The notes: generated by a model from the letters alone, not told the origin. A stretch of 32,920 nt of DNA from Arcobacteraceae bacterium (GCA_048268245.1 JBLWVX010000031.1:1-32920); one strand, 5' to 3'; shown: positions 1-15,200, numbered from the stretch's first letter. Translations and numbers: made by a program.

Positions 1-12
1 AAACTCTTATAA

Positions 13-127
13 TTGTACAACTATTAAATATTTGTTCAATAGTTAAATTATAATAATTTAAGTTTTTGTTCAACTATTAAACTAAATTCAATTATTAGAA
101 TTATATCAAAAAACAATAATTTTGATA
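13..127. promoter_or_regulatory. Operator-like repeats upstream of the first phage ORF
   Basis: TTGTACAACTATTAAA (13-28) and TTGTTCAACTATTAAA (66-81) match at 15/16; AACTATT (19-25)/AATAGTT (38-44) are inverted; TATCAAAA (104-111)/TTTTGATA (120-127) are inverted. Confidence 0.45.
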
Positions 128-150
128 AACACTATTTTAAAGGGGTAATT

Positions 151-429
151 ATGAAGTGGGTACAAACAATAATGAAATTTACATCTAAAAAAACTAGACA
201 ATCTAAAAGAATTAGATTAATTAAAAAGTTTGCTTTAAATGTATTAGTTCCATCTCATAAAGATATGTCTGATAAATACTTTCAAAAAATCATTAAAATA
301 AATAAAAGAAAAAATCTTCTTTTAAAATTTAATAATCACATCAAAAAACAATTATCAAAAAAATCTCAATTCTCAAAATTAAAACAATTATTTACTTTAT
401 TTGATAAACAGTATGCAAGGCTTATATAA
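151..429 (+). CDS. Hypothetical, very Lys-rich phage protein (92 aa)
   Basis: ORF preceded by the AGGGGT Shine-Dalgarno shared with other phage genes; no recognisable motif. Confidence 0.55.
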   Translation: MKWVQTIMKFTSKKTRQSKRIRLIKKFALNVLVPSHKDMSDKYFQKIIKINKRKNLLLKFNNHIKKQLSKKSQFSKLKQLFTLFDKQYARLI

Positions 430-461
430 CCTACTACAAAGCACTTTAACAAGTTCTTTCT

Positions 462-523
462 AGTGAGTTATCTCACTCGGCTAGGCACTTTACCCCGCCT
501 AGTTCGTTAGTTTAAAGGGGTAA
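462..523 (+). other. Structured leader: two hairpins plus a possible pseudoknot
   Basis: AGTGAG-ttat-CTCACT (462-477); CTAGGC-actttacccc-GCCTAG (481-502); loop TTACCCC (490-496) is complementary to GGGGTAA (517-523). Confidence 0.55.
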
Positions 524-556
524 TTAAATTAAAAAACATTTAACAAGGGGTTAATT

Positions 557-964
557 ATGGCACTAATCGAACAAGGTTTTGAAGTAAATTATACTTTACA
601 AAAGATGGGACTTATAAAAGTAGGTGGATCAGGAACTATGGATAATGGACATGCATATCCTGCAAGTTTAAAAATTAGAACTTCTAATATGTCTAGTGAA
701 TATGATGAAGAATTAGGTCAAGTAGACAAAGAGGAACTTTTAGAATTTAAAATTCCTTGTGACACAAATGTACAAGCAGGCGAATTAAATAGACTTTTTA
801 GAGATTTAAAAGCAAATGGAATAATCGTACCTTTTAATGGTGGACTTCCTAGAAAATATCAAAATTCAGAATATTCAACTGTAACAGTAACAGATAAAGC
901 AGATGAGTTACTTGAAAAGTTAAGAAAGTTAAAAGCTCCAACTTCAAAACCAAATGATAAATAA
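557..964 (+). CDS. Phage protein, candidate ssDNA-binding (pV-like) protein
   Basis: 135 aa, AAGGGG SD, apparently beta-rich, located upstream of the major coat gene; function inferred from position only. Confidence 0.5.
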   Translation: MALIEQGFEVNYTLQKMGLIKVGGSGTMDNGHAYPASLKIRTSNMSSEYDEELGQVDKEELLEFKIPCDTNVQAGELNRLFRDLKANGIIVPFNGGLPRKYQNSEYSTVTVTDKADELLEKLRKLKAPTSKPNDK

Positions 965-987
965 AAAATTGGAGTAAAGAACAATTG

Positions 988-1062
988 GGACGATTTTTAA
1001 ATTATTGGGAAGAAATAAAGATACGAACTCTTTAAACTACCTCCCATAATTTAAAAATGTTC
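988..1062. other. Long imperfect hairpin, candidate packaging signal
   Basis: ATTTTTAAATTAT-TGGGA (993-1010) pairs with TCCCATAATTTAAAAAT (1042-1058); inner stem TAAAGA (1016-1021)/TCTTTA (1029-1034); lies in a 273-bp non-coding gap. Confidence 0.55.
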
Positions 1063-1237
1063 AAACAAACGAGAGTGCGTTTAGGGCAGAAAATAAATAC
1101 CTAAACTAAATAAAAAGCTTACTAGAAAACAAAGCAATATAAATCGATAGTTGTATTGATGAAGTACATATCTTCTAGCTGTGTATTTCACAAATTCAAC
1201 TAAGGCTCTAGGATAGGGCAAACATAAAGGATAACAA

Positions 1238-1447
1238 ATGAAAGCTATGTTCAAAGGTGGAAAAGCAAAAGTAGGTGCATTAATCGCAGCAGGTTTATTA
1301 ACAGCTTCTCAAGCTCAAGCAGCATTATTAGCAGCTGATGCTTCTATTGATATGACAGAATTTATGGCAATTGGTGGAGTTGTTGCAGCTTCTTACTTAG
1401 TAATCAAAGGTGTACAAAAAGCACTACAATTATTAAGAGGTGCATAA
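1238..1447 (+). CDS. Major coat protein (pVIII-like) precursor
   Basis: 69 aa: basic N-terminus, signal peptide ending AQA, short acidic mature N-terminus, one hydrophobic helix, basic C-terminus (KGVQKALQLLRGA); AAGGA SD; terminator directly downstream. Confidence 0.88.
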   Translation: MKAMFKGGKAKVGALIAAGLLTASQAQAALLAADASIDMTEFMAIGGVVAASYLVIKGVQKALQLLRGA

Positions 1448-1464
1448 GATACTTCTTATCTTCC

Positions 1465-1490
1465 AAAATAGAGGCTAACCCCTCTATTTT
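1465..1490 (+). terminator. Intrinsic terminator after the major coat gene
   Basis: AAAATAGAGG-ctaacc-CCTCTATTTT perfect 10-bp stem ending in a T run. Confidence 0.75.
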
Positions 1491-1546
1491 ATACCTTATC
1501 TAAATTAATAAAAATTTGATTTATGTAAGTTATAAAAGGATTTAAA

Positions 1547-1798
1547 ATGACAGAAATAATACTAACTGGAAAACTAAAACAACACCTTTCAAGAACATCT
1601 TCTCAAAATAGCAAGATGTATCATATATACCAATTTGAAACAATGAATAATCATAACTATATTGAAATAATAGATGTTTATTCTCAAAATCTTCTACCTA
1701 ATTCAAAAGTAGGTGCTGATATAAAAATACCTGTTGTTGTTTCTCTAAGAGATAACTCAATCTTATTTGAAGTTAAAACAAAAAATCTAAAAGGCTAA
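1547..1798 (+). CDS. Small OB-fold-like protein, candidate ssDNA-binding protein
   Basis: 83 aa, AAGGA SD, alternating beta-strand pattern (IILTGKL, YHIYQF, IEIIDVYS, IKIPVVV); size typical of pV. Confidence 0.55.
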   Translation: MTEIILTGKLKQHLSRTSSQNSKMYHIYQFETMNNHNYIEIIDVYSQNLLPNSKVGADIKIPVVVSLRDNSILFEVKTKNLKG

Positions 1799-1801
1799 AT
1801 T

Positions 1802-2146
1802 ATGGCAAATAGAGTATGGGGAGCACCATCAATTAGTGATGATATCTTTAATAACCTTTCTAAAACACATCATAAAGAAATAGAGTATACAAACTCTTTT
1901 TCAACTGATTATATTAACTCTTTCAAAGCTTCGTTAAAAGGCGAAAAATATGAAAGACCTTTTGAAGAAAAACTTGTAAGAAATAATAATATTGACTATG
2001 TATCAGAAACAAACCTTGATGATATAGCTTATGAAATGACTAATGAGTCTTTACTAGGTTATGACCAAGATGAACACGCAGAAAACCTATTTAATGATTT
2101 TGAATCATCTGATAATTTCGGTGACTTTGATACTGACTGGATTTAA
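1802..2146 (+). CDS. Hypothetical acidic phage protein (114 aa)
   Basis: ORF with AAAGG SD; D/E-rich C-terminal half ending DFDTDWI. Confidence 0.7.
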   Translation: MANRVWGAPSISDDIFNNLSKTHHKEIEYTNSFSTDYINSFKASLKGEKYERPFEEKLVRNNNIDYVSETNLDDIAYEMTNESLLGYDQDEHAENLFNDFESSDNFGDFDTDWI

Positions 2147-2147
2147 A

Positions 2148-2252
2148 TTGATTTTACTTACTGATTTAAATATCTATTTTGCTTCTGTTGCCATTTTCTT
2201 TATGGCTAAATTTGGATTTGTAAAAGCAATTCATTTATTAAAAAGGGCATAA
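2148..2252 (+). CDS. Small membrane protein, minor coat (pVII/pIX-like) candidate, 34 aa
   Basis: Track start is 2061, but TTG at 2148 directly after the upstream stop, with GGA SD, gives MILLTDLNIYFASVAIFFMAKFGFVKAIHLLKRA: one TM helix and a basic tail. Confidence 0.6.
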   Translation: MILLTDLNIYFASVAIFFMAKFGFVKAIHLLKRA

Positions 2253-2253
2253 C

Positions 2254-2604
2254 ATGAAATTGTTACTATTAACTCTTATTTTTTTAGCTTCTTTAAATGC
2301 AGATATGCTTTTTAATAATGATAGATGTATTGTATCTTATTCAACATATTCAAATGGTGCTTATTATGAAGTGATTTATTCATCAAATCCTAATAAAGTT
2401 GTACAAACTGGACTTTCAACTTCAACAATACCAATTTCAACTGATATTTATATTCTAAAATATGATTCTAATAATCAAGAACTATGTATTAAATCAAAAG
2501 CAAAAGAACTAGGAATGACAGAACAAGACTATAACTTTGTAATGTCAATCATTGGTGGCCTTTTTGGTATTGCAATCTTCTCACAACTAATAAGGTTAGC
2601 ATAA
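2254..2604 (+). CDS. Exported phage protein with C-terminal membrane anchor (minor virion candidate)
   Basis: Signal peptide (ends LNA), two Cys, C-terminal hydrophobic helix SIIGGLFGIAIFSQLIRLA. Confidence 0.7.
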   Translation: MKLLLLTLIFLASLNADMLFNNDRCIVSYSTYSNGAYYEVIYSSNPNKVVQTGLSTSTIPISTDIYILKYDSNNQELCIKSKAKELGMTEQDYNFVMSIIGGLFGIAIFSQLIRLA

Positions 2605-2726
2605 TGCCAATACTAGATATACAAATTATAGCAAATGAGCCTGCATTTAATTACTTCGCAAGTATTCCACTAAGTTTAGCAATATATGCACTTCCAATCT
2701 TTGCAGCATTTAGGTTAATGAGGTAA
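2604..2726 (+). CDS. Unlisted 40-aa membrane protein, minor coat (pVII/pIX-like) candidate
   Basis: ATG overlaps the upstream stop (TAATG); MPILDIQIIANEPAFNYFASIPLSLAIYALPIFAAFRLMR; fills the gap before the pIII-like gene. Confidence 0.75.
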   Translation: MPILDIQIIANEPAFNYFASIPLSLAIYALPIFAAFRLMR

Positions 2727-2732
2727 TTTGTT

Positions 2733-4373
2733 ATGGTTAGAAATATAGTTTTTTTACTTTTATTTATAAATACATTTGCTTTTTCTTCTTGTTTAGACGG
2801 CGAAGAACTCAAAGTTGATAGATATACTACTACTAGTAGTTATAAGTCAGGAACAAATGAATCACATTGTAACACTAATAGAGAAACATATACATCAAAT
2901 TCTAAATTTTCTGTTGGTTCTTGTTTTTATAGTTCTGCTGATGGTTATTGGAAATATAGACTTTCTTATTCTACAGTTTATACATCTTGTCATCCTATCG
3001 ATGATGGACATGTTGAGCCTGAACCACCTAGTTATGTAAACCCTGACACAAACGAAACATGTACACTGGGTTTAGATGCAAGATATACATGTTCTTGTGC
3101 TTCTAATCAAGACTATAAACTTGGTGTTTGTACTAATCTTAATGATGGTGAAAGTGGTTATGATCCTAATGGTAATTTAGAATGTTCTGATACTCATGAA
3201 ATTACTATAATTAATGGTATTCAAACTTGTACACCAAAACAGGAAACATCTGACAATTCTTATTGTGGCTCACAGCAAAATGCACTTAATATTTTAGGTA
3301 ATATTTGTAAAGGTGATGTTAATTCTTCTACTATTAATCCTGATCAAAATGGTTGTTATAATTCTCTTTCATACTCTTGTGGAAATGGCGAAATTGGTTA
3401 TGTAGAGATTACACAAGATTTTAATATAGGTACAGGTGATGGTGGTGGTACTTCTCCAACAACACCAACTGACCCTGATACTAGTACAGGTACAGGAGGT
3501 ACAACAACAGACCCAACAAATCCTGATACAGATACTGGAACAAGTACAGGTGGAATTATTGACCCATCTACTCCTGATGATGATAGAACTCCTGCACAAG
3601 GTGGAACAGGTACTTCTACAGGTGGTGGCTCTACGGGTGAAGTTGATGAACCTGTAACAGATCCTACTTTTCCTGATGATGAAATAGTTCCTGAACCAGT
3701 TGATACTTTACCTGAGGGAAATACTGCAAGTAGTTGTGATGAAACAAAACTTACATTAACAGAAATGCTTCTTTGTGAAATGAATGAAAATCTACAAGAC
3801 TCTGACGGTACTTTTCCAAATGCTCTTGATGATTTAAAAAAATCTAATAATGAAGCCTATAAAGCTATGAATAATAATATTATAGGCTCTAATAAAAGAT
3901 TAGATGAAATAGTTGACTTAGAAAGAAATAATTTACAAGCTCAAAATATATCAAATGGTTTAATTTCAGATGTTAAAGATCTTTTGACACCTCCTGCAGA
4001 TAACGGACAATCAGAACTTGATAAACTAGATACTATTTTAGATGATGAAACAAACTTTTCAGAAGATGTTGAACTAACATCTGATTTAAAAAATACTGCA
4101 AATGGATATTTTGAAAACTATTCTAATATATTTAAAAATCAATTATTAGCTTTATTTAGTACTTTCTTTTCTATTAATACAACAGGAACACAAGCTCTTG
4201 GAGTTCCTTATAACTTTACTCTTGCAGGTAGAAATTTTACAGGTGTATTTTTAGATGAACAAATGTTTATAGAGTTACATATGGATAAGTTAGCAAAGAT
4301 AATTATATTTGGTTTCTCTGTTCTTGGTTTTTTACATGCCTTTAGATTTGTAATCGCTTCAAAGGATAACTAA
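2733..4373 (+). CDS. Attachment protein (pIII-like)
   Basis: Signal peptide, 16 Cys mostly in the N-terminal domains, Gly/Thr/Pro/Asp-rich linker, helical region, C-terminal TM anchor; directly upstream of pVI and pI. Confidence 0.85.
   Translation: MVRNIVFLLLFINTFAFSSCLDGEELKVDRYTTTSSYKSGTNESHCNTNRETYTSNSKFSVGSCFYSSADGYWKYRLSYSTVYTSCHPIDDGHVEPEPPSYVNPDTNETCTLGLDARYTCSCASNQDYKLGVCTNLNDGESGYDPNGNLECSDTHEITIINGIQTCTPKQETSDNSYCGSQQNALNILGNICKGDVNSSTINPDQNGCYNSLSYSCGNGEIGYVEITQDFNIGTGDGGGTSPTTPTDPDTSTGTGGTTTDPTNPDTDTGTSTGGIIDPSTPDDDRTPAQGGTGTSTGGGSTGEVDEPVTDPTFPDDEIVPEPVDTLPEGNTASSCDETKLTLTEMLLCEMNENLQDSDGTFPNALDDLKKSNNEAYKAMNNNIIGSNKRLDEIVDLERNNLQAQNISNGLISDVKDLLTPPADNGQSELDKLDTILDDETNFSEDVELTSDLKNTANGYFENYSNIFKNQLLALFSTFFSINTTGTQALGVPYNFTLAGRNFTGVFLDEQMFIELHMDKLAKIIIFGFSVLGFLHAFRFVIASKDN
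3426..3700 (+). repeat. Low-complexity G/T/P/D linker repeats inside the pIII-like gene
   Basis: Degenerate repeats TDPDTSTGTGG / TDPTNPDTDTGTSTGG / GTGTSTGGG. Confidence 0.7.
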
Positions 4374-4669
4374 TGTGGAATTTTCTTACAGGATTTTTTA
4401 TTTCTATTTTTGAAAAGCTTTTTTCTTTTATTGGAAAGTTCTTTAAAAAAGCTGTTGTTACTATTCCAGTTGTTGCATTTTTAATAACTTTAGAGTTTGT
4501 AATCCTTGATAAAGTTTTTGATTTAGTTCAGCCTTTAATACTTGAATTTCCTTATTTAAACTACTTAGTTTATTTTGGATTTATACAAGGTATTCAAAAC
4601 TATATACTTATTCTTATAACTGCATATAGCTCTAAAAAAGCCCTAGATATTGCTAAAAGGTTTATCTAA
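4373..4669 (+). CDS. Minor coat protein (pVI-like)
   Basis: 98 aa, hydrophobic, basic C-terminus, coupled by TAATG overlaps between pIII and pI. Confidence 0.8.
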   Translation: MWNFLTGFFISIFEKLFSFIGKFFKKAVVTIPVVAFLITLEFVILDKVFDLVQPLILEFPYLNYLVYFGFIQGIQNYILILITAYSSKKALDIAKRFI

Positions 4670-5799
4670 TGGTTGTTTTTGCTACAGGAGTAATGGGAGC
4701 AGGTAAGTCTTATGAGGCTATATGTAGAATATATGCTTACTTTGGTAAAGACACAAAAATAAAGACTTACCTAAAATCAAAATATATTATAAATAAAGAT
4801 ATTAAACATCTAAGAACTAATATCCCTTATAATAAAGACTCTTTTACTATTGATAAAACTACTGATACATCATTTAAATTTGAAAAGTTTTATGAAAATA
4901 TACAGTTACTTCATGCTTATTACTTAGATGATAATGTATCAGAAAAAGAACTTTTAGAACATGCAAAAGAGTTTGGAATAGCTGATACTTTTTTTGTAAT
5001 AGATGAGTGTCATAACTATCTTGATAAAGCTGATAAAGCCTTATTGTTCTTTTTTACTTATCATAGACACTTTCATTGTGAAGTACTTCTTATCACTCAA
5101 AACCTTTCATTAGTAAATTATAAATATAAAGGCTTTTGTGAACAGTTTGTTAGAGCAGTTCCATCAACTTTTCAATTAGTATCAAGAAACTTTGTTTATA
5201 AATATTTCCCATCTTCTAGAATGTCTGCAAAAGAACTATATAAAACAGAAAAAATTAAAAAGCTTGATATTGTTTTTAAAGCATATACAAGTGGTGGTAA
5301 AGTGTTCACAAATAATGCTATTAAAAAGATACTAATATCTTCTGCAGCTCTTTTAGCTCTTGTAATTACAGCCTTTTATTTTCTTGTAACAAATATGACA
5401 CCACAACAAGAAACACCAAACACAAATGAAGTAAATAATACTCCTGTAAATGTTCCAACTACAAATAATAGTACGCTGCAGGACACATCAACACAATTTA
5501 TAAAAGAAGAAAAGCTTTTTGATATTACAGATTTTGAGGGCTTTATGCTTGTAAGTCTTACTTGTAATAAAACAAAATGTTTTAACTCTGATTTCTCTAT
5601 TGGTTCTAATCTTTTAGAGGTCCTATATAAAAAGAAAATCCTAGAAGTAATTAGCATGAATCCAATTACTAAGAGTAGTTACTCAATAACACTTGTAACT
5701 AAACCAACATTTATAAATCTATTTCAATACAAAGGGGTAAATGATGAAAAAGATATTAATATCGCTGATGATACTAAGTACACTTATTCTAGCAAATGA
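4669..5799 (+). CDS. zot: Zot-like morphogenesis ATPase (pI)
   Basis: N-terminal Walker A GVMGAGKS, Walker B FFVIDECH, HRH..LLITQ motif, single TM helix followed by a periplasmic tail. Confidence 0.92.
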   Translation: MVVFATGVMGAGKSYEAICRIYAYFGKDTKIKTYLKSKYIINKDIKHLRTNIPYNKDSFTIDKTTDTSFKFEKFYENIQLLHAYYLDDNVSEKELLEHAKEFGIADTFFVIDECHNYLDKADKALLFFFTYHRHFHCEVLLITQNLSLVNYKYKGFCEQFVRAVPSTFQLVSRNFVYKYFPSSRMSAKELYKTEKIKKLDIVFKAYTSGGKVFTNNAIKKILISSAALLALVITAFYFLVTNMTPQQETPNTNEVNNTPVNVPTTNNSTLQDTSTQFIKEEKLFDITDFEGFMLVSLTCNKTKCFNSDFSIGSNLLEVLYKKKILEVISMNPITKSSYSITLVTKPTFINLFQYKGVNDEKDINIADDTKYTYSSK

Positions 5800-6880
5800 T
5801 GATGCAGATACTTTAACACTAAAGAACTATATAAAGCTCTTTTCAAACTTGCTTAATATAAATGTACTAGTTCCTAAAGATTTAGAAGATAAAAAGATCT
5901 CTTTTTTTATAAACACAAAGTTAGATAAGATAGAAAAAGATTTAGGTACATTGTCAGATGTTTTAAAAGCTAATAATCTAATACTTATTAGAAAACCAAA
6001 CTATTACTTAGTTACTGAAAAAAATGAACTGTCACTAACTTGTACTTATGAAGTAAATAATTCAAGCTTTACAGATATAGAAAATTACTTCAAATTTCAA
6101 GCACTAAAATATACAATCTTTAAAGATACAAATGTAGTTTATTTTAAAACTAATAAAACTTGTAAAGAGCATGTTAAAAAACTTGCAATGATAGATAACG
6201 TACTTCAAAATATGGTACTTAATATTTCAATCTTTCAAAACGATATGTCAAATAATAAGGAAAAAGAAGTTAAGTTTGATACAAAATATCTACAGATACT
6301 TAATCCTTTTACTATTGCTGCAGACACAACAATTAAATACACTAAAGATACCTATGAAACATTTTTAAGATATGTAGATAAAAACTCTGATGTACAAATA
6401 AAGTCTTCGCCATCTTTAAAAGTATTTAACAATAAAACACTTGATTTCAACTCATTTCAAGAAATACCCTATACAAAAACTATCACTCAATTAGATAAAG
6501 ATAATTCAAATAAAACTACAGAATCAACAGACTTTAAAAAAGTAGGTATATCAGTAAAAATAAAACCAAGATTTCTTAAAAATGGCTCTGTTTATTTTGC
6601 TATGAAATTATCATTTTCAAACTTTATTGACTTTGATAAAAAAGGTATTCCAACAACATACACAAATGATTTAAATACTAGCTTCATACTAAAAGAAGAT
6701 GAAATGTTTGTTCTCTCTGGTTTAAATTCACAATCAAATAAAAATGTTCTTTCTTATCCCTTGCTTTCTCAATTACCAATCATTGGAGAGGCCTTTAATG
6801 GATATATCAAAGAAAATAAAAAGTTCCACTTATCACTAGTGGTTAAATTAACAAAAGGGGTTACTGATGTCAAAAAGTAA
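5741..6880 (+). CDS. Phage secretin (pIV-like, GspD family)
   Basis: Signal peptide; secretin C-domain motifs QEIPY, KKVGISVKIKP, EMFVLSGL, PLLSQLPIIGEAF; overlaps the pI 3' end. Confidence 0.88.
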   Translation: MMKKILISLMILSTLILANDDADTLTLKNYIKLFSNLLNINVLVPKDLEDKKISFFINTKLDKIEKDLGTLSDVLKANNLILIRKPNYYLVTEKNELSLTCTYEVNNSSFTDIENYFKFQALKYTIFKDTNVVYFKTNKTCKEHVKKLAMIDNVLQNMVLNISIFQNDMSNNKEKEVKFDTKYLQILNPFTIAADTTIKYTKDTYETFLRYVDKNSDVQIKSSPSLKVFNNKTLDFNSFQEIPYTKTITQLDKDNSNKTTESTDFKKVGISVKIKPRFLKNGSVYFAMKLSFSNFIDFDKKGIPTTYTNDLNTSFILKEDEMFVLSGLNSQSNKNVLSYPLLSQLPIIGEAFNGYIKENKKFHLSLVVKLTKGVTDVKK

Positions 6881-7064
6881 ATTAAGATTAAAAAATAAGT
6901 ATAGAAAGATTTTTACTACTGATAATTACGAAAGTCACACATATTTTCATAATCATCTTGATGGGAATTTATTTCCTTTATTGATTCCAAATACAGTAAT
7001 TGAGATTTTAATAATTCATGGTTTAAAACAAATGTTTAACAAATTTACAAAGGATATAACATGA
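6867..7064 (+). CDS. Hypothetical phage protein (65 aa)
   Basis: AAGGGG SD; overlaps both neighbours. Confidence 0.55.
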   Translation: MSKSKLRLKNKYRKIFTTDNYESHTYFHNHLDGNLFPLLIPNTVIEILIIHGLKQMFNKFTKDIT

Positions 7065-7378
7065 TAGAAAAAATTAAAAACAATATAGGTTTAGCTCGTA
7101 ATCTGATTAGTTCAGTTGATATTCCAATACCTTTATTACCTTTTGCAGGATTACTTTTATCAATAGCAGCAGTAAAACAAATAGTAAAAGAAGCACAAAA
7201 TGACCCAAGAACAGATGAAGAGTTCTTCCAAGATATTAAAAATGAGTATTTAAATATGCAAAGAATGAGTGAACAAATAAATGATAATTTCTATGTTTTT
7301 ACAGAAGAATTTAATCAAGAGCTACATTTTAGAATTAATTACTTTAATGAGTATATTTTCAAATTTGAAGATCAATAA
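7061..7378 (+). CDS. Hypothetical phage protein (105 aa), one hydrophobic segment
   Basis: AAGGA SD; ATGA overlap with the upstream stop. Confidence 0.65.
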   Translation: MIEKIKNNIGLARNLISSVDIPIPLLPFAGLLLSIAAVKQIVKEAQNDPRTDEEFFQDIKNEYLNMQRMSEQINDNFYVFTEEFNQELHFRINYFNEYIFKFEDQ

Positions 7379-7387
7379 AAATAGGTT

Positions 7388-7480
7388 TTAAATCTTTATT
7401 TTATAGAGATTTAATTAGTGAGAAGAACACTTTTTCTTTGTGAGCGAAGCGAACAAAAAAAAGTGTTCCTTGTCAAATTA
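7388..7480. other. Candidate rolling-circle origin (two hairpins upstream of rep)
   Basis: Hairpin 7388-7414; hairpin GAACACTTTTTcTTTGT-gagcgaagcga-ACAAAAAAAAGTGTTC (7425-7468) followed by CTTGTC. Confidence 0.6.
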
Positions 7481-7505
7481 ACAAAAGTTGTCGTCAGGGG
7501 TAAAA

Positions 7506-8879
7506 ATGAAATATGGTATTACTACAAAAGATTTAGAAGTTATTCAAAAGAAACATGAAATACAAAGAGCATATCTAAAAGACAAATTCTTTATAGGTTC
7601 AACAGGTCAATATAAATCACTTTTAGATGTTTCTTTCTCAGCTAATCATTCAAAAAGATACTATTCAGAGATCATAAATAAAATAAACACTATGAATGAA
7701 ATAGTAGCAAGTGAGCTTATTGAATATTCTAATATATTTATAACAGCAACACTTGATGGGTTTTTTAGAGACTTTTTAAAAGGTGATTTTTCAAGATACA
7801 ATGAAGATAAGCATAAAAAGCTAATTCCAAATAATGATAGATTTGGTCATTTAAAAGATAAAATAGCTTCAAAAGAAAAGTTTACAATAAAAGACTTATA
7901 CAATATTTTAAACTATCAAATGTATAGATTTCAAAGTTCACAAAAATATAGAAAAATCAAAAAAGCAGGATATAAAGCTCATTATATAAGAGTTGCAGAA
8001 CCACATAAGAAAGATGGTGTACCACACATTCACATGATGTTATATGTTCCTGTAGAGTTTAAGAATGACCTTTTAAAAGCATATAGAGAATACTTTCCAG
8101 CACCTCAAAATATTAAAAAACTAAAAAACTGCAAATTAGGTCAGTTAAATGGTTTTCAATGGGATATTAAGTCAGCTCCTGCATATATTCTAAAATATTT
8201 ATTTAAATCATTTTTAAATGTAGAAAATGAAAGTGAACTTGATGAGCTTCAAACTTGGTATATTAAACATAGAATCCTAAGGGTTGTCACTTCTCACTCT
8301 TTAGTTCCTGCATGGGTTTATAGAAAAACAGCAATCATAGAAAAAGACTGGCATTATCTAACAGATATTATAAAAACTGGTATCGCTTCATGGAATCAAG
8401 AGAATGACTATTTTATGTTTCAAGATGAACAAGACAGGGTACTTAGATACCATAACGGTACTTACGAGGTTTTTAATAAAAATAGATTAATTAAATCATT
8501 TGGAAAAAAGAAAGATACTGTTTCTAAAGATAAACCTTTTAGAGTTGATTTAAAACTAAAATACAAAAAGAAAATTAAAAACCTTCATGTTATCGTAGAT
8601 GGTGTTGATTATGTAACAGTTGATAATAAACTAAAAAAATTTAATCCAATTCCAATACCATCAAGAATGACAGACAAAATACTTACTGAGTACTTTAATG
8701 AGCAAGATAATAAACCTATAGATCAACTAAATATACCACATTACAAAGTAACTAAAAATGAAATGATTAAAAGAGGTCTTTTCAATAATAAAAAACTTGA
8801 ATTGATAAATGGAAACTTTGAACTTATAAACTCTATGCCTTATGAAACATTTGAGACTATAGAGTCAATAGGATTTTAA
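7506..8879 (+). CDS. Rolling-circle replication endonuclease, HUH superfamily, P2 gpA-like
   Basis: Motifs FITATL, RVAEPHKKDGVPHIH (HUH) and AYILKYLFK (two-Tyr motif 3); ATG 7506 with AGGGGT SD preferred over the track start TTG 7488. Confidence 0.88.
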   Translation: MKYGITTKDLEVIQKKHEIQRAYLKDKFFIGSTGQYKSLLDVSFSANHSKRYYSEIINKINTMNEIVASELIEYSNIFITATLDGFFRDFLKGDFSRYNEDKHKKLIPNNDRFGHLKDKIASKEKFTIKDLYNILNYQMYRFQSSQKYRKIKKAGYKAHYIRVAEPHKKDGVPHIHMMLYVPVEFKNDLLKAYREYFPAPQNIKKLKNCKLGQLNGFQWDIKSAPAYILKYLFKSFLNVENESELDELQTWYIKHRILRVVTSHSLVPAWVYRKTAIIEKDWHYLTDIIKTGIASWNQENDYFMFQDEQDRVLRYHNGTYEVFNKNRLIKSFGKKKDTVSKDKPFRVDLKLKYKKKIKNLHVIVDGVDYVTVDNKLKKFNPIPIPSRMTDKILTEYFNEQDNKPIDQLNIPHYKVTKNEMIKRGLFNNKKLELINGNFELINSMPYETFETIESIGF

Positions 8880-8880
8880 T

Positions 8881-9114
8881 ATGCTAAATGTACTAACACT
8901 AAAAAATGATGAAACTACAATCTACTATATTTTAAAAGACAAAATAGTTTTTCAAATAAGAAAAATAAGACTTTCAGAAAATGCAACATTTATATTTTTT
9001 GATTACACATTCAAAGAAACAAAATTTAAAAGCTTTAAATCAATAGATGAAGCAAAAGAACATCTAAAAACTAGATTTGAACAATATTTAAATAAATTTA
9101 ATAAAAGGGGATAA
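8881..9114 (+). CDS. Hypothetical phage protein (77 aa)
   Basis: Tightly packed between rep and parB, with AGGA SD. Confidence 0.65.
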   Translation: MLNVLTLKNDETTIYYILKDKIVFQIRKIRLSENATFIFFDYTFKETKFKSFKSIDEAKEHLKTRFEQYLNKFNKRG

Positions 9115-9115
9115 A

Positions 9116-10576
9116 ATGAATAAATTAATAGATACACAATTACAAGACTTTTTAGAGGTGGATATCAAAACAGTATATCCAAATGAAAATCAACCAAGAA
9201 AAACTTTTAATAATTTAGATGAGCTTGCAAGCTCTATTAAAATACATGGACTTTTAGAACCTGTTGCAGTTGTTAAATTTGATAAAGGATTTATGATTGT
9301 AGATGGTGAAAGAAGATTTAAGGCTTGTAATAAATTAAATCACACAACTATTAAAATACAGATATTTGATTTTGATGAAGCTCAAATAGATGAAATATCA
9401 CTTGTAAAAGCAAGACAAAGGCAAGATTTAACACCTTTTGAATATGCAAAGAAAATAGGTGAGATGTGGAACTCTGGAAGATATAAGAAAAAAGAACATT
9501 TAGCAAGAGCTATAGGTGAATCACAAACTTTTATTTCTAAATGTTTTTCTTCTTTAAGATTAGACCCATCTATCGTAACACTTTTAGAAGCTGATAGATT
9601 AACTGTACCTCTTTCAGTTCTTGAAGAAATAGGAAGAATTAAAGATACAGATTTACAATGTGAGATATATGATAAATATGTAAACGAAGAAATTACAAGA
9701 GATGAAATAAAAGATTATAAACAAAATTTTCCCGCGGGAAAAAAAGAAGAAAAAGTATCAAACTTTAATACAAAACCTGATGAACATAAAGAAGAAGTTG
9801 ATATTGATGATTTTATTCCTTTTAAATATATTATTACTTTAACAAAAAAGATTACTTCAAATTTTTCAAAAGGATTATTATTTGATTTACCTTTTGGTAT
9901 AAAAGGTATTTATACTATTAATGACATTAATATTGATTTTTATGAGTTTCAAACTGGTGTACATATAGGTTTTGGTAATTTATCATTAAATTCTTTAGAT
10001 GAAATGATTGAAAAAGTTTATAAACATTTTTTAGGAAGTGGTGCAAATCATGTATTAAATTTCTTCAAAAGAAGATTAGTTATTAATGATACTTTTGAAC
10101 ACACATATATTAAAGTCTTAAATGATATTGCAAAAGAATCATCTATGCAAAAAGAAACAATTAATGATATAGATGAAATAGCAAAACTTCAAAATGAAAA
10201 TAAAAGATTAAAAGAAGAAAATGAACAATTAAAAAAAGAATTAGAAAGCTTAAAAAATTCAACTCAAGAAAAACCTAAATCATTTAAAGAACAATATGAA
10301 GAATCAAAGAACCTGGAGCAACCAGTTAAAGAAGAAACAAAAAGAGATATAAGACATATTGAAATAAGTGATAGTATATATATAGAATATACAGATATGG
10401 ACTGCGATACAGTATCTTATTCAAAAGCTAAACAAATTATTAAAGAGCTTCAAACTACAGAGTTTACATATGTGTCTAATGGTTCAGAAAAAGCACATAA
10501 TTTTATTAATTCAATTCCTAAGTATGGAAGTGATCATAATAAGATTGTTTTAAAAGATAAATATAGAGTTAACTAA
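9116..10576 (+). CDS. ParB/Spo0J-family protein with a long unrecognised C-terminal extension
   Basis: PNENQPRKTF, LASSIKIHGLLEP, IVDGERRFKA (GxxRxxA box), HTH KKEHLARAIGESQTFISK; C-terminal coiled coil (LQNENKRLKEENEQLKKELE). Confidence 0.85.
   Translation: MNKLIDTQLQDFLEVDIKTVYPNENQPRKTFNNLDELASSIKIHGLLEPVAVVKFDKGFMIVDGERRFKACNKLNHTTIKIQIFDFDEAQIDEISLVKARQRQDLTPFEYAKKIGEMWNSGRYKKKEHLARAIGESQTFISKCFSSLRLDPSIVTLLEADRLTVPLSVLEEIGRIKDTDLQCEIYDKYVNEEITRDEIKDYKQNFPAGKKEEKVSNFNTKPDEHKEEVDIDDFIPFKYIITLTKKITSNFSKGLLFDLPFGIKGIYTINDINIDFYEFQTGVHIGFGNLSLNSLDEMIEKVYKHFLGSGANHVLNFFKRRLVINDTFEHTYIKVLNDIAKESSMQKETINDIDEIAKLQNENKRLKEENEQLKKELESLKNSTQEKPKSFKEQYEESKNLEQPVKEETKRDIRHIEISDSIYIEYTDMDCDTVSYSKAKQIIKELQTTEFTYVSNGSEKAHNFINSIPKYGSDHNKIVLKDKYRVN
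9727..9742. promoter_or_regulatory. Perfect 16-bp palindrome, candidate parS site
   Basis: TTTTCCCGCGGGAAAA is its own reverse complement and has a GC-rich core inside a very AT-rich gene. Confidence 0.55.
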
Positions 10577-10902
10577 TGACAATAGAAGAAAAATTAGATT
10601 TAATTATTAAAAAATTAACTGTATTAGAAGATGAAATTGTTAATCAAAAAAATTTTAATACAAAAAAAGATGTTGCAATTTTTTTAAATGTTACATCTAG
10701 AACTGTTACTAATTATATTAAAAATGGTACTTTTATAAATGGTGTTCATTACGTTTATAGAAATGATAAATTATATTTTATTAGTAAAGCTATTTATGAT
10801 TATAAAGTTAATCCAATTACAACAATTAGTAAAGATGTAATTGATGATATTGAATATTTAAACCCTATTGCTTCTAATATTGTAAAGGATTTAATAGCAT
10901 GA
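10576..10902 (+). CDS. Helix-turn-helix protein, excisionase-like
   Basis: NTKKDVAIFLNVTSRTVTNYIKNG HTH pattern; overlaps the integrase start (ATGA). Confidence 0.75.
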   Translation: MTIEEKLDLIIKKLTVLEDEIVNQKNFNTKKDVAIFLNVTSRTVTNYIKNGTFINGVHYVYRNDKLYFISKAIYDYKVNPITTISKDVIDDIEYLNPIASNIVKDLIA

Positions 10903-12050
10903 GCATATTATATAACTATATGAATATGAAAATTACAATAAAAGAAAAAAATCAAAAATGGTGGTTGGATTTTTATCATAATGGTAAAAGAGTAAGGAAG
11001 TCTACAAAATTAATTGCTAATGATGTTAATTTAAAAGAGATTAAAAAAGTTATCATACCTCAAATAGTTTCAGCTCTTAAAGGTTCTAGTAATATATCTT
11101 TAAATTTAGATATTACATTAGATGATTTTTCACATAAGTTCTTTCAAGTTTATAAAAATACTGTTAGAACTCATGTCTATAAAGAACGATTGAAACAATA
11201 TAAATTAGCTATATATCCTTTCTTTAAAGATATAAAGATTATTGAAATAACACCTTTGCTTCTTGAGGAATGGCAAAGTAAATTACTTATCAAATACAAA
11301 CTTAATAGTTATAAAATATATAAATCTTTACTAAATTTAATTCTTAAAAAAGCTTATGAAAATAATTTCATTTCTTTTAATCCTTTTGATAAAGTTTCCC
11401 TTCCTAAAAAGAGTATAAAATTAAAGAAATTAGATGAGCAACATGACTATATATATCCATTTAATACAAATGAGATAAACACAATTTTTAATTATTACAA
11501 AGTTAAAAAAAACAACATTTACTATTTCTTATCTATTATGTTATATACAGGTATGAGACCAGGTGAGATACTTGCTCTTACTTGGAATGATATTGATTTT
11601 CATAAGAAACGTATTGCAATTGATAAAAAAATATTAAATGGTGTTCTAGGTGATGTTAAAACTCAATCAAGTGTAAGATATGTTGATATACTTCCTCAAT
11701 TAGAAATACTATTATTAGAATTAAAATCTAAACAAAAAGATAGTAATATAGTTCTTTCTACTATTAGCAATACACATTATTATTCACAAGCTAATTTTTA
11801 TGCTGATTTTGTTAAAACATTAAAAAAACATAATATACCTACACGTACAATTTATAATTTAAGACATACATTTGCTTCAACTCTTATATCAGAGTCTTCT
11901 AGCAATATTTTATATGTTTCAAATATGTTAGGTCATGCAAATTTGGATATTACTCTTAAAATTTATGCAAAATTTATAAAAGAAGATGAGGAAAAGAGAC
12001 TAAATAATATAAAAAGAGTGGGCTCTTTTATGGACATTTTTAATATTTGA
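10899..12050 (+). CDS. Tyrosine recombinase / phage integrase
   Basis: N-terminal arm-binding-like WWLDFYHNGKRVRKST; catalytic motifs TGMRPGE, KT, YNLRHTFAS, LGH, TLKIY. Confidence 0.95.
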   Translation: MSILYNYMNMKITIKEKNQKWWLDFYHNGKRVRKSTKLIANDVNLKEIKKVIIPQIVSALKGSSNISLNLDITLDDFSHKFFQVYKNTVRTHVYKERLKQYKLAIYPFFKDIKIIEITPLLLEEWQSKLLIKYKLNSYKIYKSLLNLILKKAYENNFISFNPFDKVSLPKKSIKLKKLDEQHDYIYPFNTNEINTIFNYYKVKKNNIYYFLSIMLYTGMRPGEILALTWNDIDFHKKRIAIDKKILNGVLGDVKTQSSVRYVDILPQLEILLLELKSKQKDSNIVLSTISNTHYYSQANFYADFVKTLKKHNIPTRTIYNLRHTFASTLISESSSNILYVSNMLGHANLDITLKIYAKFIKEDEEKRLNNIKRVGSFMDIFNI

Positions 12051-12131
12051 TATTTCTTTAAGTGCGTTAAAAAGGCTTTTGTTAGTGTTTATATGTTATT
12101 AATACTTAATAGTTTGTTCAAAGGAAAAGTA

Positions 12132-12731
12132 GTGAAAATAGTTTTAGCTTCAGGTAATAAAGGAAAGATAAAAGAGATTGGTAAATTAATGCCAAATGAT
12201 GAAGTTCTTGCCTTTAAAGATATTTTAGGTGATATAGAGATTGTAGAAGATAAAGATACTTTTAAAGGTAATGCAATCAAAAAAGCAAAAGTAATTTATG
12301 ATGAATTAGAAAAAAAAGGTTATAAAAATCATATTGTTATTTCTGATGACTCTGGACTTACAGTTCCTGCATTAAATAATGAACCAGGTATTTACTCTGC
12401 AAGATATGCAGGAGAAAATGCTAGTGACAATGATAATAATGAAAAATTAATAAACAGTCTAAAAGAAAAAAACTTAAAAAGAACACCAGCTTATTATACA
12501 GCTTGTATAGCAATAGTTTACCAAGGAAATGTAGAAACTGTTCATGGTTGGATGCACGGAAAAGTTATTGATGAGCAAGTTGGAAGTGAAGGTTTTGGTT
12601 ATGATCCTTTATTTATTCCAAAAGGTTTTGATAAAACTTTAGGTGAATTACCTCATGAAGTAAAAAAAGAGTTTTCTCATAGAAGTAAGGCTTTAAAATT
12701 AGCTAAAAAAGTTTTAGAAGTTATTATCTAA
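12132..12731 (+). CDS. rdgB: dITP/XTP pyrophosphatase (RdgB/HAM1)
   Basis: [36 protein letters not shown] motifs; GTG 12132 with AAGGA SD preferred over the track start 12093. Confidence 0.95.
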
Positions 12732-13060
12732 ATATTTTTTATAAACTCTTCATATACAGATATGTCATAATATTTTGACTTAACATATATTTGTATATGA
12801 AAGTTTGAGTTTTCTTTTTTTACATAAGCTTCAATCAAAAAAGAGTCATCATTTATACTTAAGTGTTCGATAGTATTTAAATTTGTAAGAGAGTTTATAT
12901 ACTCTTTTAGAAATTCTTTGTGGTTTTTTGCTTGTATATATAAATATTGATTTATCTCATTCTCATTTTTTATAGATTTTGTTGTTAAAATTTTTATACT
13001 TAAATATGAAAAAAGTGTTATTAATACAATACTTAAAAGTAAAACAAATGACTTTTTCAT
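12728..13060 (-). CDS. Pilin-like protein (atypical, lacks E+5)
   Basis: [14 protein letters not shown] class III-like leader; last gene of a three-gene cluster. Confidence 0.6.
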
Positions 13061-13398
13061 ATTTTAAACACCCATTTTATAAAAATCGCATCTTTATATT
13101 TAAGGTCTATTTTTATTAACTTTTGCTCTTTTTTCATACTAAAACTGCTAATATCTTCTAAAAGAATAGAGTTTTTATAAAAGATTGTAGTTCCTTCATG
13201 TTTTATATATTCATAAAAATCTGCTTTTTTATCTAAAAAAGCTTTTGTTGCAAGTAAATCAATCTTAGCTATTTCTTGTTTTTGTATAGTGTCACTATTT
13301 GTGTACAACTCTTTAATAAAAACTAAACTATAAATTATTACTATAGATGAAATTAGTGTTACTAGTATTAATTCTAAAAGTGAAAAACTAGATTTCAT
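13057..13398 (-). CDS. Prepilin-type N-terminal domain protein
   Basis: MKSS-FSLLELILV motif; start 13398 preferred over the track start 13428. Confidence 0.7.
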   Translation of the reverse strand: MKSSFSLLELILVTLISSIVIIYSLVFIKELYTNSDTIQKQEIAKIDLLATKAFLDKKADFYEYIKHEGTTIFYKNSILLEDISSFSMKKEQKLIKIDLKYKDAIFIKWVFKI

Positions 13399-13690
13399 AT
13401 TTGAATAATTTGATTGTTTCATCTTCATATTTATACTTTTTTACGTTTAAATTTATTTCACTTGAGTTATTTATCATGATTTTAATATTATTTTGAGTTT
13501 TTTCAAAACTACTATAATCTTTTGAAGTAAATCTATTTTCTAAGTCATTTAGCTTTTGAAAGTTATTGTTTTTTGAGTCATAATAAGTGAGATTTGAAAA
13601 CCCACTTATTACAAATAGTAGTAAGCTTATGCTTATTAAGGTTTCTAAAATAGTAAAACTATTTTTTCCCAAGTTCACAAGCTTTTTCAT
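13388..13690 (-). CDS. Prepilin-type N-terminal domain protein
   Basis: KNS-FTILETLISI motif; the real start may be TTG at 13672. Confidence 0.7.
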   Translation of the reverse strand: MKKLVNLGKNSFTILETLISISLLLFVISGFSNLTYYDSKNNNFQKLNDLENRFTSKDYSSFEKTQNNIKIMINNSSEINLNVKKYKYEDETIKLFKYEI

Positions 13691-14423
13691 ATGCTTTGTT
13701 TACTGCTTTTATCATAGAGTCTCTAACAGCTCCTTCTTCAAGTTGTGCAACACCAGCAGCAGTAGTTCCCCCTGGTGACATAACTGAGTCTTTTATGATT
13801 GCAGGATGATTTGATTTTAGAAGTTTAGATGTTCCTTCCATTAAGCCTTGAACTAACTCATAGCATGTATGTCTTTCAAGTCCAGCTTTTACACCACCAT
13901 CTGCTAAAGCTTCTGCTATTAAAGCTAAGTAAGCAGGTCCAGAACCAGCAATAGCAGTTGCAATATCAAGTTGATTTTCAGTATTTACCCAAATTGCTTT
14001 ACCAATTGATGAGAAAATTTCAATAGCTGTAGTTTTAGCTTCCTTATCTCCTGTAATAGTTGTAGTTGAGAATTGAACTGAAGCTGCAACATTTGGCATA
14101 GTTCTTACATAGTGTTTTGCTTCAATTTGTTTTTTTAGTGTATCAAGAGTAGTTCCTGCTAGGATAGAAAATAGCATGTTTGCTTTTCCTGTAAGCCTTG
14201 CTGATACACTATGTAGGGCATATGGTTTTACACAAAAAAGAATATTTTTATCTGTAATATCTTCATTGTCATCTAAAACTTTGATAGTAATTTCAGGAAT
14301 TTTTTCGTGAATAGTTTTTAGTTTATTTTCATCTCTTCCTATTATTTCAACTTCATGGTTTTTAATAAGTCCCTTAGCCAGGGATTGAGCCATAACTCCA
14401 TTACCTATTAAAGTTAGTTTCAT
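13659..14423 (-). CDS. proC: Pyrroline-5-carboxylate reductase
   Basis: IGNGVMA, VKP, RTMPN, GSGPAY, SPGGTT motifs. Confidence 0.96.
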   Translation of the reverse strand: MKLTLIGNGVMAQSLAKGLIKNHEVEIIGRDENKLKTIHEKIPEITIKVLDDNEDITDKNILFCVKPYALHSVSARLTGKANMLFSILAGTTLDTLKKQIEAKHYVRTMPNVAASVQFSTTTITGDKEAKTTAIEIFSSIGKAIWVNTENQLDIATAIAGSGPAYLALIAEALADGGVKAGLERHTCYELVQGLMEGTSKLLKSNHPAIIKDSVMSPGGTTAAGVAQLEEGAVRDSMIKAVNKAYEKACELGKK

Positions 14424-14450
14424 TTTAATACCTTTTTAATTATTTTTATT

Positions 14451-14459
14451 ATTATAGCA
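14451..14459 (-). promoter_or_regulatory. Extended -10 promoter element for proC
   Basis: TGCTATAAT on the minus strand about 28 nt upstream of the proC ATG. Confidence 0.6.
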
Positions 14460-14515
14460 GATAATTCCTAAGCTAGTATTAGATAAAATATCAACTTTAC
14501 AAGAAAGGATTTTAT

Positions 14516-15175
14516 ATGGTAACTAGCTTTAAACTAAAAAATTTATTATTTGCCACAAGTTTAATTTTTATTTTTACGGCTTGTTCTTCAAAAAACGAGT
14601 CAAGCACAGAGTACAATAAACCAGCAATTTATTGGTATAACAAAATGGTAACTCAACTTTCAAGAGGTGATACAGATTTAGCTGATGATACTTATACATC
14701 ATTGGAAAGTGAACATAGAAATTCACCTTTAATCCCAACCGCAATACTTATTTTAGTAAATGCACATATTGATGCAGAAGAGTATGCTTTAGCAAACTTC
14801 TATTTAGATGAGTATATTAAAAGATTTGCATTAAGTAAAAATATTGATTATGCTAGATATTTAAAAATTAAAGCTAACTTCTTAGGGTTCACATATCAAA
14901 TGAGAGATCAAAAACTTATAGAAGATACTATAAATGACATAAAAGAGTACAAAATAAAGTATAGTTCATCTCCATATATGCCTCTTGTTGATACAATGAA
15001 TGCAAGATTGTATATGGCAAAAGCACTTCTTGATGAAGAGATTGCAAAACTTTACGAGAAAAAAGGTAAAGAAAAAGCAGCTAAAATTTACATGGATAGA
15101 GTTAAAGAGTCATGGATTGACCCAGAAGAGATCAAACCTGTAGAAGTACCATTTTATAGATCAATTTTTGAATAA
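14516..15175 (+). CDS. bamD: Outer membrane protein assembly lipoprotein BamD
   Basis: Lipobox FTAC, TPR-like helices, position upstream of lon. Confidence 0.88.
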   Translation: MVTSFKLKNLLFATSLIFIFTACSSKNESSTEYNKPAIYWYNKMVTQLSRGDTDLADDTYTSLESEHRNSPLIPTAILILVNAHIDAEEYALANFYLDEYIKRFALSKNIDYARYLKIKANFLGFTYQMRDQKLIEDTINDIKEYKIKYSSSPYMPLVDTMNARLYMAKALLDEEIAKLYEKKGKEKAAKIYMDRVKESWIDPEEIKPVEVPFYRSIFE

Positions 15176-15200
15176 TATATAAGGATTTAGGAGTAAATAT

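Follow-up and report, generated by a model that had tools for sequence, protein, structure and literature searches.

Filamentous phages of the Ff group (M13/f1/fd) are not known to integrate, and CTXphi, from which the Zot family takes its name, uses the XerCD recombinases and the secretin of its host. The Pf phages are not known to encode a secretin, and their Rep is a different one. Among the described prophages of Campylobacterota, the zot prophages of Campylobacter (Liu et al. 2016, PMC5025632) are, in the available part of that paper, defined by an integrase and attachment (att) repeats and lie in tRNA-Met, tRNA-Ser and tRNA-Leu genes; the words filamentous and secretin do not occur in its text. 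Roux et al. 2019 (PMC6813254), in the sections accessible to us, name Campylobacterota among the hosts of inoviruses, give a size range of 5-20 kb and count prophages with att sites beside an integrase. The filamentous prophage of Cupriavidus STM 6070 (PMC10011098, available in part) combines a tyrosine recombinase and a pIV secretin in one inovirus. The present analysis concerns a stretch of 32,920 nucleotides (nt) from an Arcobacteraceae bacterium (GCA_048268245.1 JBLWVX010000031.1:1-32920), hereafter called the window, which is the entire contig C31 of a 2.68 Mb genome in 57 contigs with 28% G+C. Positions 1-12108 carry on one strand an inovirus set made up of a pVIII-like coat, pIII-, pVI- and pI/Zot-like proteins, an own pIV secretin, an HUH Rep, a ParB, an Xis-like protein and a tyrosine integrase. 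This set very probably belongs to a temperate inovirus integrated in an Arcobacter-type chromosome. The phage would be part of a Campylobacterota lineage that is widespread, has hardly been studied, and has its own secretin and tyrosine integrase.

The window phage resembles the zot prophages of the CON_phi2/CON_phi3 type in belonging to the same lineage by pI and in the presence of zot, an integrase and att direct repeats, and the C. concisus loci of our survey have the same order of pI, secretin, Rep and integrase. Its pI is 30-31% identical to that of C. concisus over the full length and up to 38% over part of it (CON_phi2 and CON_phi3 themselves were not fetched by name), below the 40% yardstick given in the available text of PMC5025632. 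It differs from the zot prophages in occupying an intergenic site instead of a tRNA gene, and in its ParB, which was found in none of the C. concisus loci. The Cupriavidus prophage, as far as the available text of PMC10011098 goes, differs in its betaproteobacterial host and in having an Ff-type pII (pfam05144), not a gpA/ORF2-G2P-type HUH Rep. The likeness to Pf4 and Pf1 of Pseudomonas lies in an own tyrosine integrase with an excisionase, in a repressor and accessory cargo, and in a chronic release that does not lyse the cell, which for the window phage is predicted from its genes; the comparison with the GenBank phage collection gave no detectable sequence similarity between Pf4/Pf1 and the window phage. 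With the Ff phages it has in common assembly and export by pI and pIV, and its secretin matches phrog_1012, 'protein IV of M13'. From both Ff and CTXphi it is set apart by its own integrase, Xis and secretin. The claim of the original prediction that the element has an integrase and a secretin of its own is supported by profile matches (Table 1).

Integration can be followed at the borders of the element. Three genomes of the same genus (G001, G002 and G003; 84-91% nucleotide identity) have an empty site, whose left flank corresponds to contig C45 up to 15445 and whose right flank, on the rdgB side, corresponds to C31 from 12085. The repeats attL and attR lie at these points and have an exact 11-nt core in common, ATTAATACTTA, found at 12098-12108 in attR. 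The site is a short divergent spacer between a major facilitator superfamily transporter gene and rdgB. The element had originally been placed between positions 1 and 12100, and both ends need correction. Position 1 is merely where contig C31 ends; with attL on the other contig, C45, it marks a break of the assembly within the prophage, and the left arm on C45, with a regulator and a nuclease, had been missed; the right end is attR. No overlap of contig ends that would close the gap from C45 16482 to window position 1 was found in the assembly. Counted without this gap, the prophage comes to at least 13,145 nt, so that an integrated inovirus of a Campylobacterota host of at least 12 kb, as had been proposed, is upheld by the att repeats and the size. 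The size fits the range given for inoviruses in the available part of PMC6813254, and the one-strand order also fits an inovirus. Integration into a tRNA gene was considered and rejected, there being no tRNA at either junction. Nor does the locus follow the XerCD/dif type known from integrative mobile elements exploiting Xer (IMEX-type) and CTXphi: it has its own tyrosine integrase, and the att site is unrelated to a tRNA gene.

The 212-amino-acid (aa) open reading frame (ORF) that follows the integrase is the host Ham1/RdgB. Its true start is a GTG at 12132, 23 nt past attR, and the ATG with which the 'rdgB' ORF opens, at 12093, falls within phage-derived DNA. The insertion has given rdgB an in-frame upstream ATG (12093; region 12093-12134) and severed its native upstream spacer. 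As the integrase gene is oriented towards rdgB, read-through may drive rdgB. The remainder of the window past the prophage consists of ordinary host genes. Going by the closest pI and the flanks of the prophage that carries it, both from Arcobacter sp. YIC-464, the host is an Arcobacter-type bacterium (Campylobacterota).

A prophage pieced together from two contigs could in principle be an artefact or a chimera, in which replicative-form DNA was misjoined to the chromosome or pieces of different elements met on C45 and C31. The element and a sibling inovirus in the same genome both stand at contig ends, and the assembly has no contig below 6.3 kb, so joining pieces may have been dropped. Yet the junction between the integrase and rdgB is internal to a contig of 32.9 kb, both contigs have the att core exactly where the empty sites of the three relatives predict it, and a helix-turn-helix (HTH) regulator with an Mrr-like gene is the normal left arm of the lineage. 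In addition, a public metagenome contig is identical to window 1-449 and extends 627 nt further left. We regard an artefact as highly improbable.

It was observed that nineteen plus-strand ORFs stand head to tail between 151 and 12050, all of them open, and that an AAGG/AAAGGGG Shine-Dalgarno motif precedes nearly all ORFs of the window. The hidden Markov model (HMM) searches proposed with the original prediction matched pI and Rep; for pVIII they gave no match in Pfam or PHROGs. The pI protein has a Walker A motif GVMGAGKS, a Walker B motif VIDE and a single transmembrane (TM) segment at 221-239. The secretin has a signal peptide and a Ka/Ks of 0.07, and is predicted to be the phage's own outer-membrane channel. 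The Rep carries the motifs HIH at 180-182 and YILKY at 233-237, and its true start is likely the ATG at 7506, behind GGAG. Against Phage_GPA (PF05840) it scores 28.0 bits (1.4e-6), for a gathering cut-off of 31.4, and the Rep of the sibling inovirus, 29% identical to it, scores 73 bits on the same family; the sole match in the GenBank phage collection is the HP1/HP2 Rep, 31% identical over 29% of the protein. In the integrase the residues R, K, R, H and Y are visible, and a Tyr replaces the first His of box II, which is the norm of the lineage (45/54 homologues). The pVIII-like coat was assigned by its features: behind a signal peptide that ends in AQA, the 69-aa protein is acidic at the N-terminus, hydrophobic in its core and basic, with K/R, at the C-terminus; weak relatives of like design occur in 6 other loci. 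The HMM matches, together with the sequence features of coat, pI and Rep, confirm the observed gene set. The structural and morphogenesis block is real as had been claimed, by HMM matches for pI and secretin and by features for the coat proteins.

Table 1. Features of the prophage, ordered from the left to the right attachment site (positions are those of the window unless contig C45 is named).
Feature	Position	Strand	Basis and remarks
attL	C45 15423-15445		23-nt imperfect repeat of attR
Membrane-anchored Mrr-type nuclease, 187 aa	C45 left arm	opposite	Mrr_cat 2.9e-9
Small HTH regulator	C45 contig end	opposite	lacks ~1-2 codons relative to 22 homologues
Putative intergenic control region	1-150	.	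three operator-like GTTCAAC/TATTAAA-type copies, two direct and one inverted; faces the HTH gene
92-aa very basic ORF	151-429	+	first gene of the rightward block; preceded by AAAGGGGTAATT
Hairpin region, non-coding, conserved	438-530	+	candidate packaging signal or origin element
135-aa OB-fold protein	557-964	+	candidate ssDNA-binding / primosome-like; AF2 pLDDT 84.9
Structured intergenic region, 273 nt	965-1237	+	candidate origin / packaging region or pVIII promoter
Major coat, pVIII-like, 69-aa precursor, ~41 aa mature	1238-1447	+	sequence features
83-aa all-beta OB-fold protein	1547-1798	+	candidate gene-V-like ssDNA-binding protein; AF2 pLDDT 87
114-aa acidic protein	1802-2146	+	Ka/Ks 0.11 against L014; no family
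63-aa hydrophobic protein	2061-2252	+	minor coat (pVII/pIX-like) candidate; overlaps the 114-aa ORF; Ka/Ks 0.56, few changes
116-aa protein	2254-2604	+	minor coat candidate; signal peptide, C-terminal anchor; TM 3-21, 95-113
40-aa single-TM protein	2604-2726	+	minor coat candidate; TM 18-36; Ka/Ks 0.24
pIII-like adsorption protein, 546 aa	2733-4373	+	signal peptide, Cys-rich N-domain, Gly/Thr/Pro linker, C-terminal TM 519-537
pVI-like hydrophobic protein, 98 aa	4373-4669	+	position between pIII and pI; TM segments; Ka/Ks 0.09
pI/Zot assembly ATPase	4669-5799	+	PF05707 E 6.9e-11; phrog_197 5.9e-19
pIV secretin	5741-6880	+	PF00263 5.5e-24; phrog_1012 5.9e-30 over 21-371
Two accessory ORFs, 65 aa and 105 aa (TM in the 105-aa protein)	6867-7378	+	variable cassette; no family
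HUH rolling-circle Rep	7488-8879	+	REP_ORF2-G2P 4.1e-7, 30.7 bits, above cut-off; phrog_91
77-aa protein	8881-9114	+	directly after Rep in C31, C44 and L014; no family
Orphan ParB	9116-10576	+	ParB_N 2.2e-15; HTH_ParB 2.8e-5; PHROGs
Xis-like small HTH protein	10576-10902	+	weak excisionase PHROGs, 3e-3 to 5e-3; overlaps the integrase start
Tyrosine integrase	10899-12050	+	PF00589 2.6e-20; phrog_1 4.2e-55; SAM-like and arm-binding domains
attR	12086-12108		23-nt imperfect repeat of attL

The set had been called unusual, and this did not survive comparison with the lineage. A scan of representative genomes gave 80 loci, all of which have a pI relative by construction; the presence of the other genes was read by tblastn, and the counts are lower bounds as many of the loci are short contigs. 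The hosts were Sulfurimonas, Sulfuricurvum, Aliarcobacter/Arcobacter, Campylobacter concisus and others. A same-strand secretin is present in 60/80 loci, 59 of these with the gene 0.8-1.7 kb downstream of the pI start; a Rep relative in 69/80, which in 68 lies 1.0-3.2 kb downstream; and a same-strand integrase within 9 kb in 48/80. Upstream and on the opposite strand, an HTH regulator was found in 22/80 loci and an Mrr-like gene, present in 21/80, in 20. Integrase-bearing zot prophages and inoviruses with both secretin and integrase are moreover in print, in the available parts of PMC5025632 and PMC10011098. The order of pI, secretin, Rep and integrase is thus the standard of the lineage; judged from the genes, the only unusual points are an orphan ParB and the sharing of cassettes with the co-resident sibling.

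The surmise that the lineage is poorly characterised has, on the other hand, gained ground. No match to pI was found in the GenBank phage collection, and pI is at most 38% identical to that of every survey locus save one Arcobacter prophage (91%). All of its 56 homologues have PF05707 (Zot), the named ones are from Campylobacterota, and the best is from Arcobacter sp. YIC-464 (91%). In IMG/VR, 20 viral contigs carry pI relatives, of 4.8-10.1 kb with one of 17.8 kb. In a pI tree of 87 rows, from a quick search with support from the Shimodaira-Hasegawa-like approximate likelihood ratio test (SH-aLRT) only, the window and the YIC-464 locus form a long-branch pair (100) in a clade dominated by Sulfurimonas (81), and the sibling inovirus groups with loci of Arcobacteraceae (100). 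Short contigs of metagenome-assembled genomes labelled Micavibrio, Gracilibacteria, Aquificales and Alphaproteobacteria (L018, L024, L029 and L063) also carry pI relatives, a spread for which binning errors are as likely an explanation as a wider host range. No paper on a filamentous phage of Arcobacter was found among the top literature matches examined.

The closest relative of the window phage is the prophage of Arcobacter sp. YIC-464 (L014, NZ_JBMOVV010000001.1), for which no describing paper was found. It is 89% identical at the nucleotide level over window 467-9106, from the 135-aa through the 77-aa gene, and its pI and secretin are 91% and 93% identical, respectively. It differs in being ~10.1 kb long, in having no ParB and no 92-aa ORF, in having Xis and integrase of the type found in the sibling, and in occupying another chromosomal site, where the host flanks are 90% identical to the source genome; the HTH and Mrr-like genes were not within the fetched locus. 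For all 15 ORFs shared with this prophage the Ka/Ks is 0.07-0.56, which indicates purifying selection. The values speak for even the small ORFs being genuine, and for a lineage that was working and moving until recently. The earlier remark that the frames look intact is borne out by these values and by the open ORFs of the window. Public contigs show further variants, which include the loss of 6855-7381 and a form like that of YIC-464 without ParB. In contigs of 4/4 public runs, 6854 is joined to 7382 with 20 other letters between, so the 65-aa and 105-aa ORFs form a cassette that is present or absent among close relatives. The best DNA matches among public runs were oyster and mollusc metagenomes (at most 0.48 of words), and no RNA datasets were listed among the matching runs.

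The same genome holds a second inovirus on contig C44 (L012; ~6700-17290, minus strand, at the contig end). Its order is that of the window, with pIII, a pVI-like protein, pI, secretin, Rep, the 77-aa gene, ParB, Xis and Int. Its backbone proteins are 27-36% identical to those of the window phage, and five cassettes are common to both: the hairpin region, the pIII N-domain (65% identity over the N-terminal 206 aa), the 105-aa gene (87%), the 77-aa gene (93-94%, for 92% in the YIC-464 prophage) and ParB. Judged by these comparisons it is a second, mosaic phage, and a new one. A motif of the type TTAATATTTATA is common to this sibling and the right junction of the YIC-464 prophage, which is a lead only on the borders of the sibling.

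The orphan ParB is where the locus departs from its lineage. The protein begins with a ParB_N domain, which holds a GERRFKA box, and an HTH; its middle is variable and is followed by a coiled coil and a C-terminal domain that is again conserved. It is 97% identical to that of the sibling over the first 232 aa, with a Ka/Ks of 0.06 for this part, and 92% over the last 136. No ParB relative was found in 100 pI-bearing loci (the 80 genome loci and the 20 IMG/VR contigs), and conversely pI, secretin or a Rep of the window type occurred in 0/160 loci with ParB relatives. The closest full-length relatives (48-50%) are on IMG/VR viral contigs of 33-40 kb (L201, L202 and L203), the C-terminal domain being matched in L201 and L202. 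These contigs differ in being large temperate phages, in which a CI-type repressor and an anti-repressor are present and a ParA-like gene stands two genes before ParB, and in having no pI, secretin or window-type Rep. The order in L201 (39.7 kb; 8817-11668) is ParA-like (phrog_164), phrog_98, ParB, Xis-like (32%) and Int (38%), beside the CI-type repressor and anti-repressor. This arrangement suggests a ParA/ParB unit inside a lysogeny module, and in the window ParB, Xis and Int follow one another much as they do in larger temperate phages. In Vibrio, lysogeny modules have been described as passing between inoviruses and phages of other types (PMC12715192, available in part). No description of a ParB-bearing inovirus was found among the literature matches listed; in the available text of PMC7466150, ParB and inovirus are mentioned in unrelated passages. 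On these comparisons the orphan ParB appears to be rare and new for the lineage.

A self-sufficient partition function had been proposed for the element, and this part of the proposal is not borne out: ParB stands alone. No match to the ParA family was found among the 19 window ORFs and 2 left-arm ORFs (Pfam, PHROGs). A scan for parS with the consensus of the chromosomal type gave 2 matches at 3 mismatches for 0.71 expected, and 22/100 shuffles did as well; a palindrome search for parS gave nothing outstanding. Most likely the protein would be a CTP-type DNA clamp on phage DNA, holding the replicative form or silencing or regulating the phage. That it is a working part and not just passive cargo, a clamp that segregates the replicative form via the host ParA/Soj or silences the prophage, is a tentative proposal that we hold to be rather unlikely. 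If it were true, this would be the first partition- or ParB-controlled filamentous phage, and the cassette of the 77-aa gene and ParB would belong to a lysogeny module that is passed among inoviruses living in one cell and larger temperate phages.

Two small proteins could supply the single-stranded DNA (ssDNA)-binding function. Both are predicted by AlphaFold2 (AF2; confidence as pLDDT, the predicted local distance difference test, in Table 1) to have an oligonucleotide/oligosaccharide-binding (OB) fold. The top fold matches of the 135-aa model are SSB/PriB (Foldseek E 1.1e-3 and up; VIA Z at most 6.2), and a relative is found at the same place in 18/80 loci. The top Foldseek match of the 83-aa model is the mitochondrial SSB Rim1 (E 9.1e-4, TM score 0.72, root mean square deviation 2.6), with further matches to viral SSB and DUF3127; its Atlas lead was Putative_G5P (0.89), and it has 8 relatives in 1.84 billion representatives. 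The 83-aa protein is in our view the best candidate for a gene-V analogue, and the two OB-fold candidates, which come from structural models, would be a new annotation. The remaining small ORFs vary in their support. The 63-aa ORF is the weakest gene call, as no Shine-Dalgarno motif was seen, the 116-aa protein has relatives in 4/80 loci and a Ka/Ks of 0.16, and the 92-aa ORF has neither a Pfam/PHROG family nor relatives in the loci searched (0/80, 0/20 and 0/160).

The non-coding regions and the left arm could hold the control elements of the phage. Inverted repeats I1 and I2 were detected in window 1-150, a stretch which may well be a control region. The hairpin region is 88% identical to that of the sibling over 421-560 and 91.5% over a core of 438-554, against ~30% for the backbone, and is also present in the YIC-464 prophage. 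Its stem is CTAGGC/GCCTAG in the window, and the sibling keeps ATTAGGC/GCCTGAT. The ssDNA fold of 425-556 has a z of -2.6; that of 965-1237 has a minimum free energy of -29.6 kcal/mol for -16.0 in shuffles (z -4.3; 0/200 shuffles as good). Both regions are candidate packaging or origin signals. A hairpin with a T-rich tail lies at ~1468-1494, 3' of the 69-aa coat gene. No Rfam family reached its gathering threshold in window 1-13000, and a scan for promoters and terminators was uninformative, since promoter-like sites were fewer than in shuffles. The left arm, C45 15446-16482, codes for two proteins on the strand opposite to the rightward block. The Mrr-type nuclease appears from the survey to be a cargo common in the lineage; when 8 accessory proteins were run through PADLOC, the sole match was a weak one (mad1, E 0.0036) on the HTH regulator. 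Elsewhere on C45, at ~10243-11122 (L013 ~1243-2123), an insertion of ~880 nt relative to the three same-genus genomes was seen between a LapD-like GGDEF/EAL gene and the next gene, and within it lies a 93-aa ORF without a Pfam family.

A life cycle can be proposed from these parts. Acting on the repeats at window 1-100, the small left-arm HTH regulator would silence the rightward operon. Upon induction a circle would be cut out at the 11-nt core by Xis and Int, the HUH Rep would nick the plus strand and drive rolling-circle replication, and the 83-aa OB-fold protein, perhaps also that of 135 aa, would coat the single strand. The inner-membrane pI and the outer-membrane pIV secretin would then extrude the DNA, adding the 41-aa mature coat, the pIII-like adhesin, pVI and small cap proteins, without lysis.

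Several points weigh against a temperate inovirus. The prophage is split over two contigs with a gap from C45 16482 to window 1, and the assembly does not contain the whole of the HTH regulator gene. The Xis-like protein is assigned by weak matches and by its position directly upstream of int; it should be noted that its counterpart in the sibling matches HTH_17 at 3.6e-7. For pVIII, pIII, pVI and the small coat candidates no match was found in the HMM searches (Pfam, PHROGs), and the two OB proteins, which have no sequence family, gave fold matches of modest though consistent score (Foldseek E ~1e-3, Z at most 6.2). Any role of ParB has to be inferred, as neither parS nor ParA was found. Nothing directly attests excision, a circle, ssDNA or particles, and among the loose ends listed for the public contigs there is no joint bearing on attP, which would connect the window with another contig.

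The last point would suit a cryptic prophage, in which the genes are kept, excision and particles are lost and the host retains the element for its cargo, such as the Mrr-type nuclease or ParB: the public contigs give no sign of a circular form or of particles, the insertion parts rdgB from its upstream region so that the site could be fixed in the strain, and its co-resident sibling might provide functions or interfere with them. All 19 window ORFs nevertheless lack interruptions, no ORF in common with the YIC-464 prophage reaches a Ka/Ks of 0.6, both att repeats are preserved, and the site is empty in three related genomes. The YIC-464 prophage, at a different chromosomal site and with a different integrase, further indicates that the lineage has moved recently. 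A cryptic prophage is thus an unlikely state of the element, if less improbable than an assembly artefact, and the temperate inovirus is the reading we favour.

Seen in a wider setting, the locus is a typical one within its group. What is known of filamentous phages from Campylobacterota comes almost entirely from the 'zot prophages' of C. concisus, and interest in these has centred on Zot as a possible toxin. The locus, its sibling and ~100 related loci form a coherent lineage with a fixed layout, in which a regulator and a nuclease stand on one side and coat, pI, secretin, HUH Rep and integrase on the other. This layout can serve as an annotation template, and it adds ssDNA-binding candidates and a coat family that HMM libraries do not detect. 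The orphan ParB, and the cassettes that the two inoviruses of this genome have in common, give a modest lead as to how lysogeny modules may be exchanged between small phages and larger ones.

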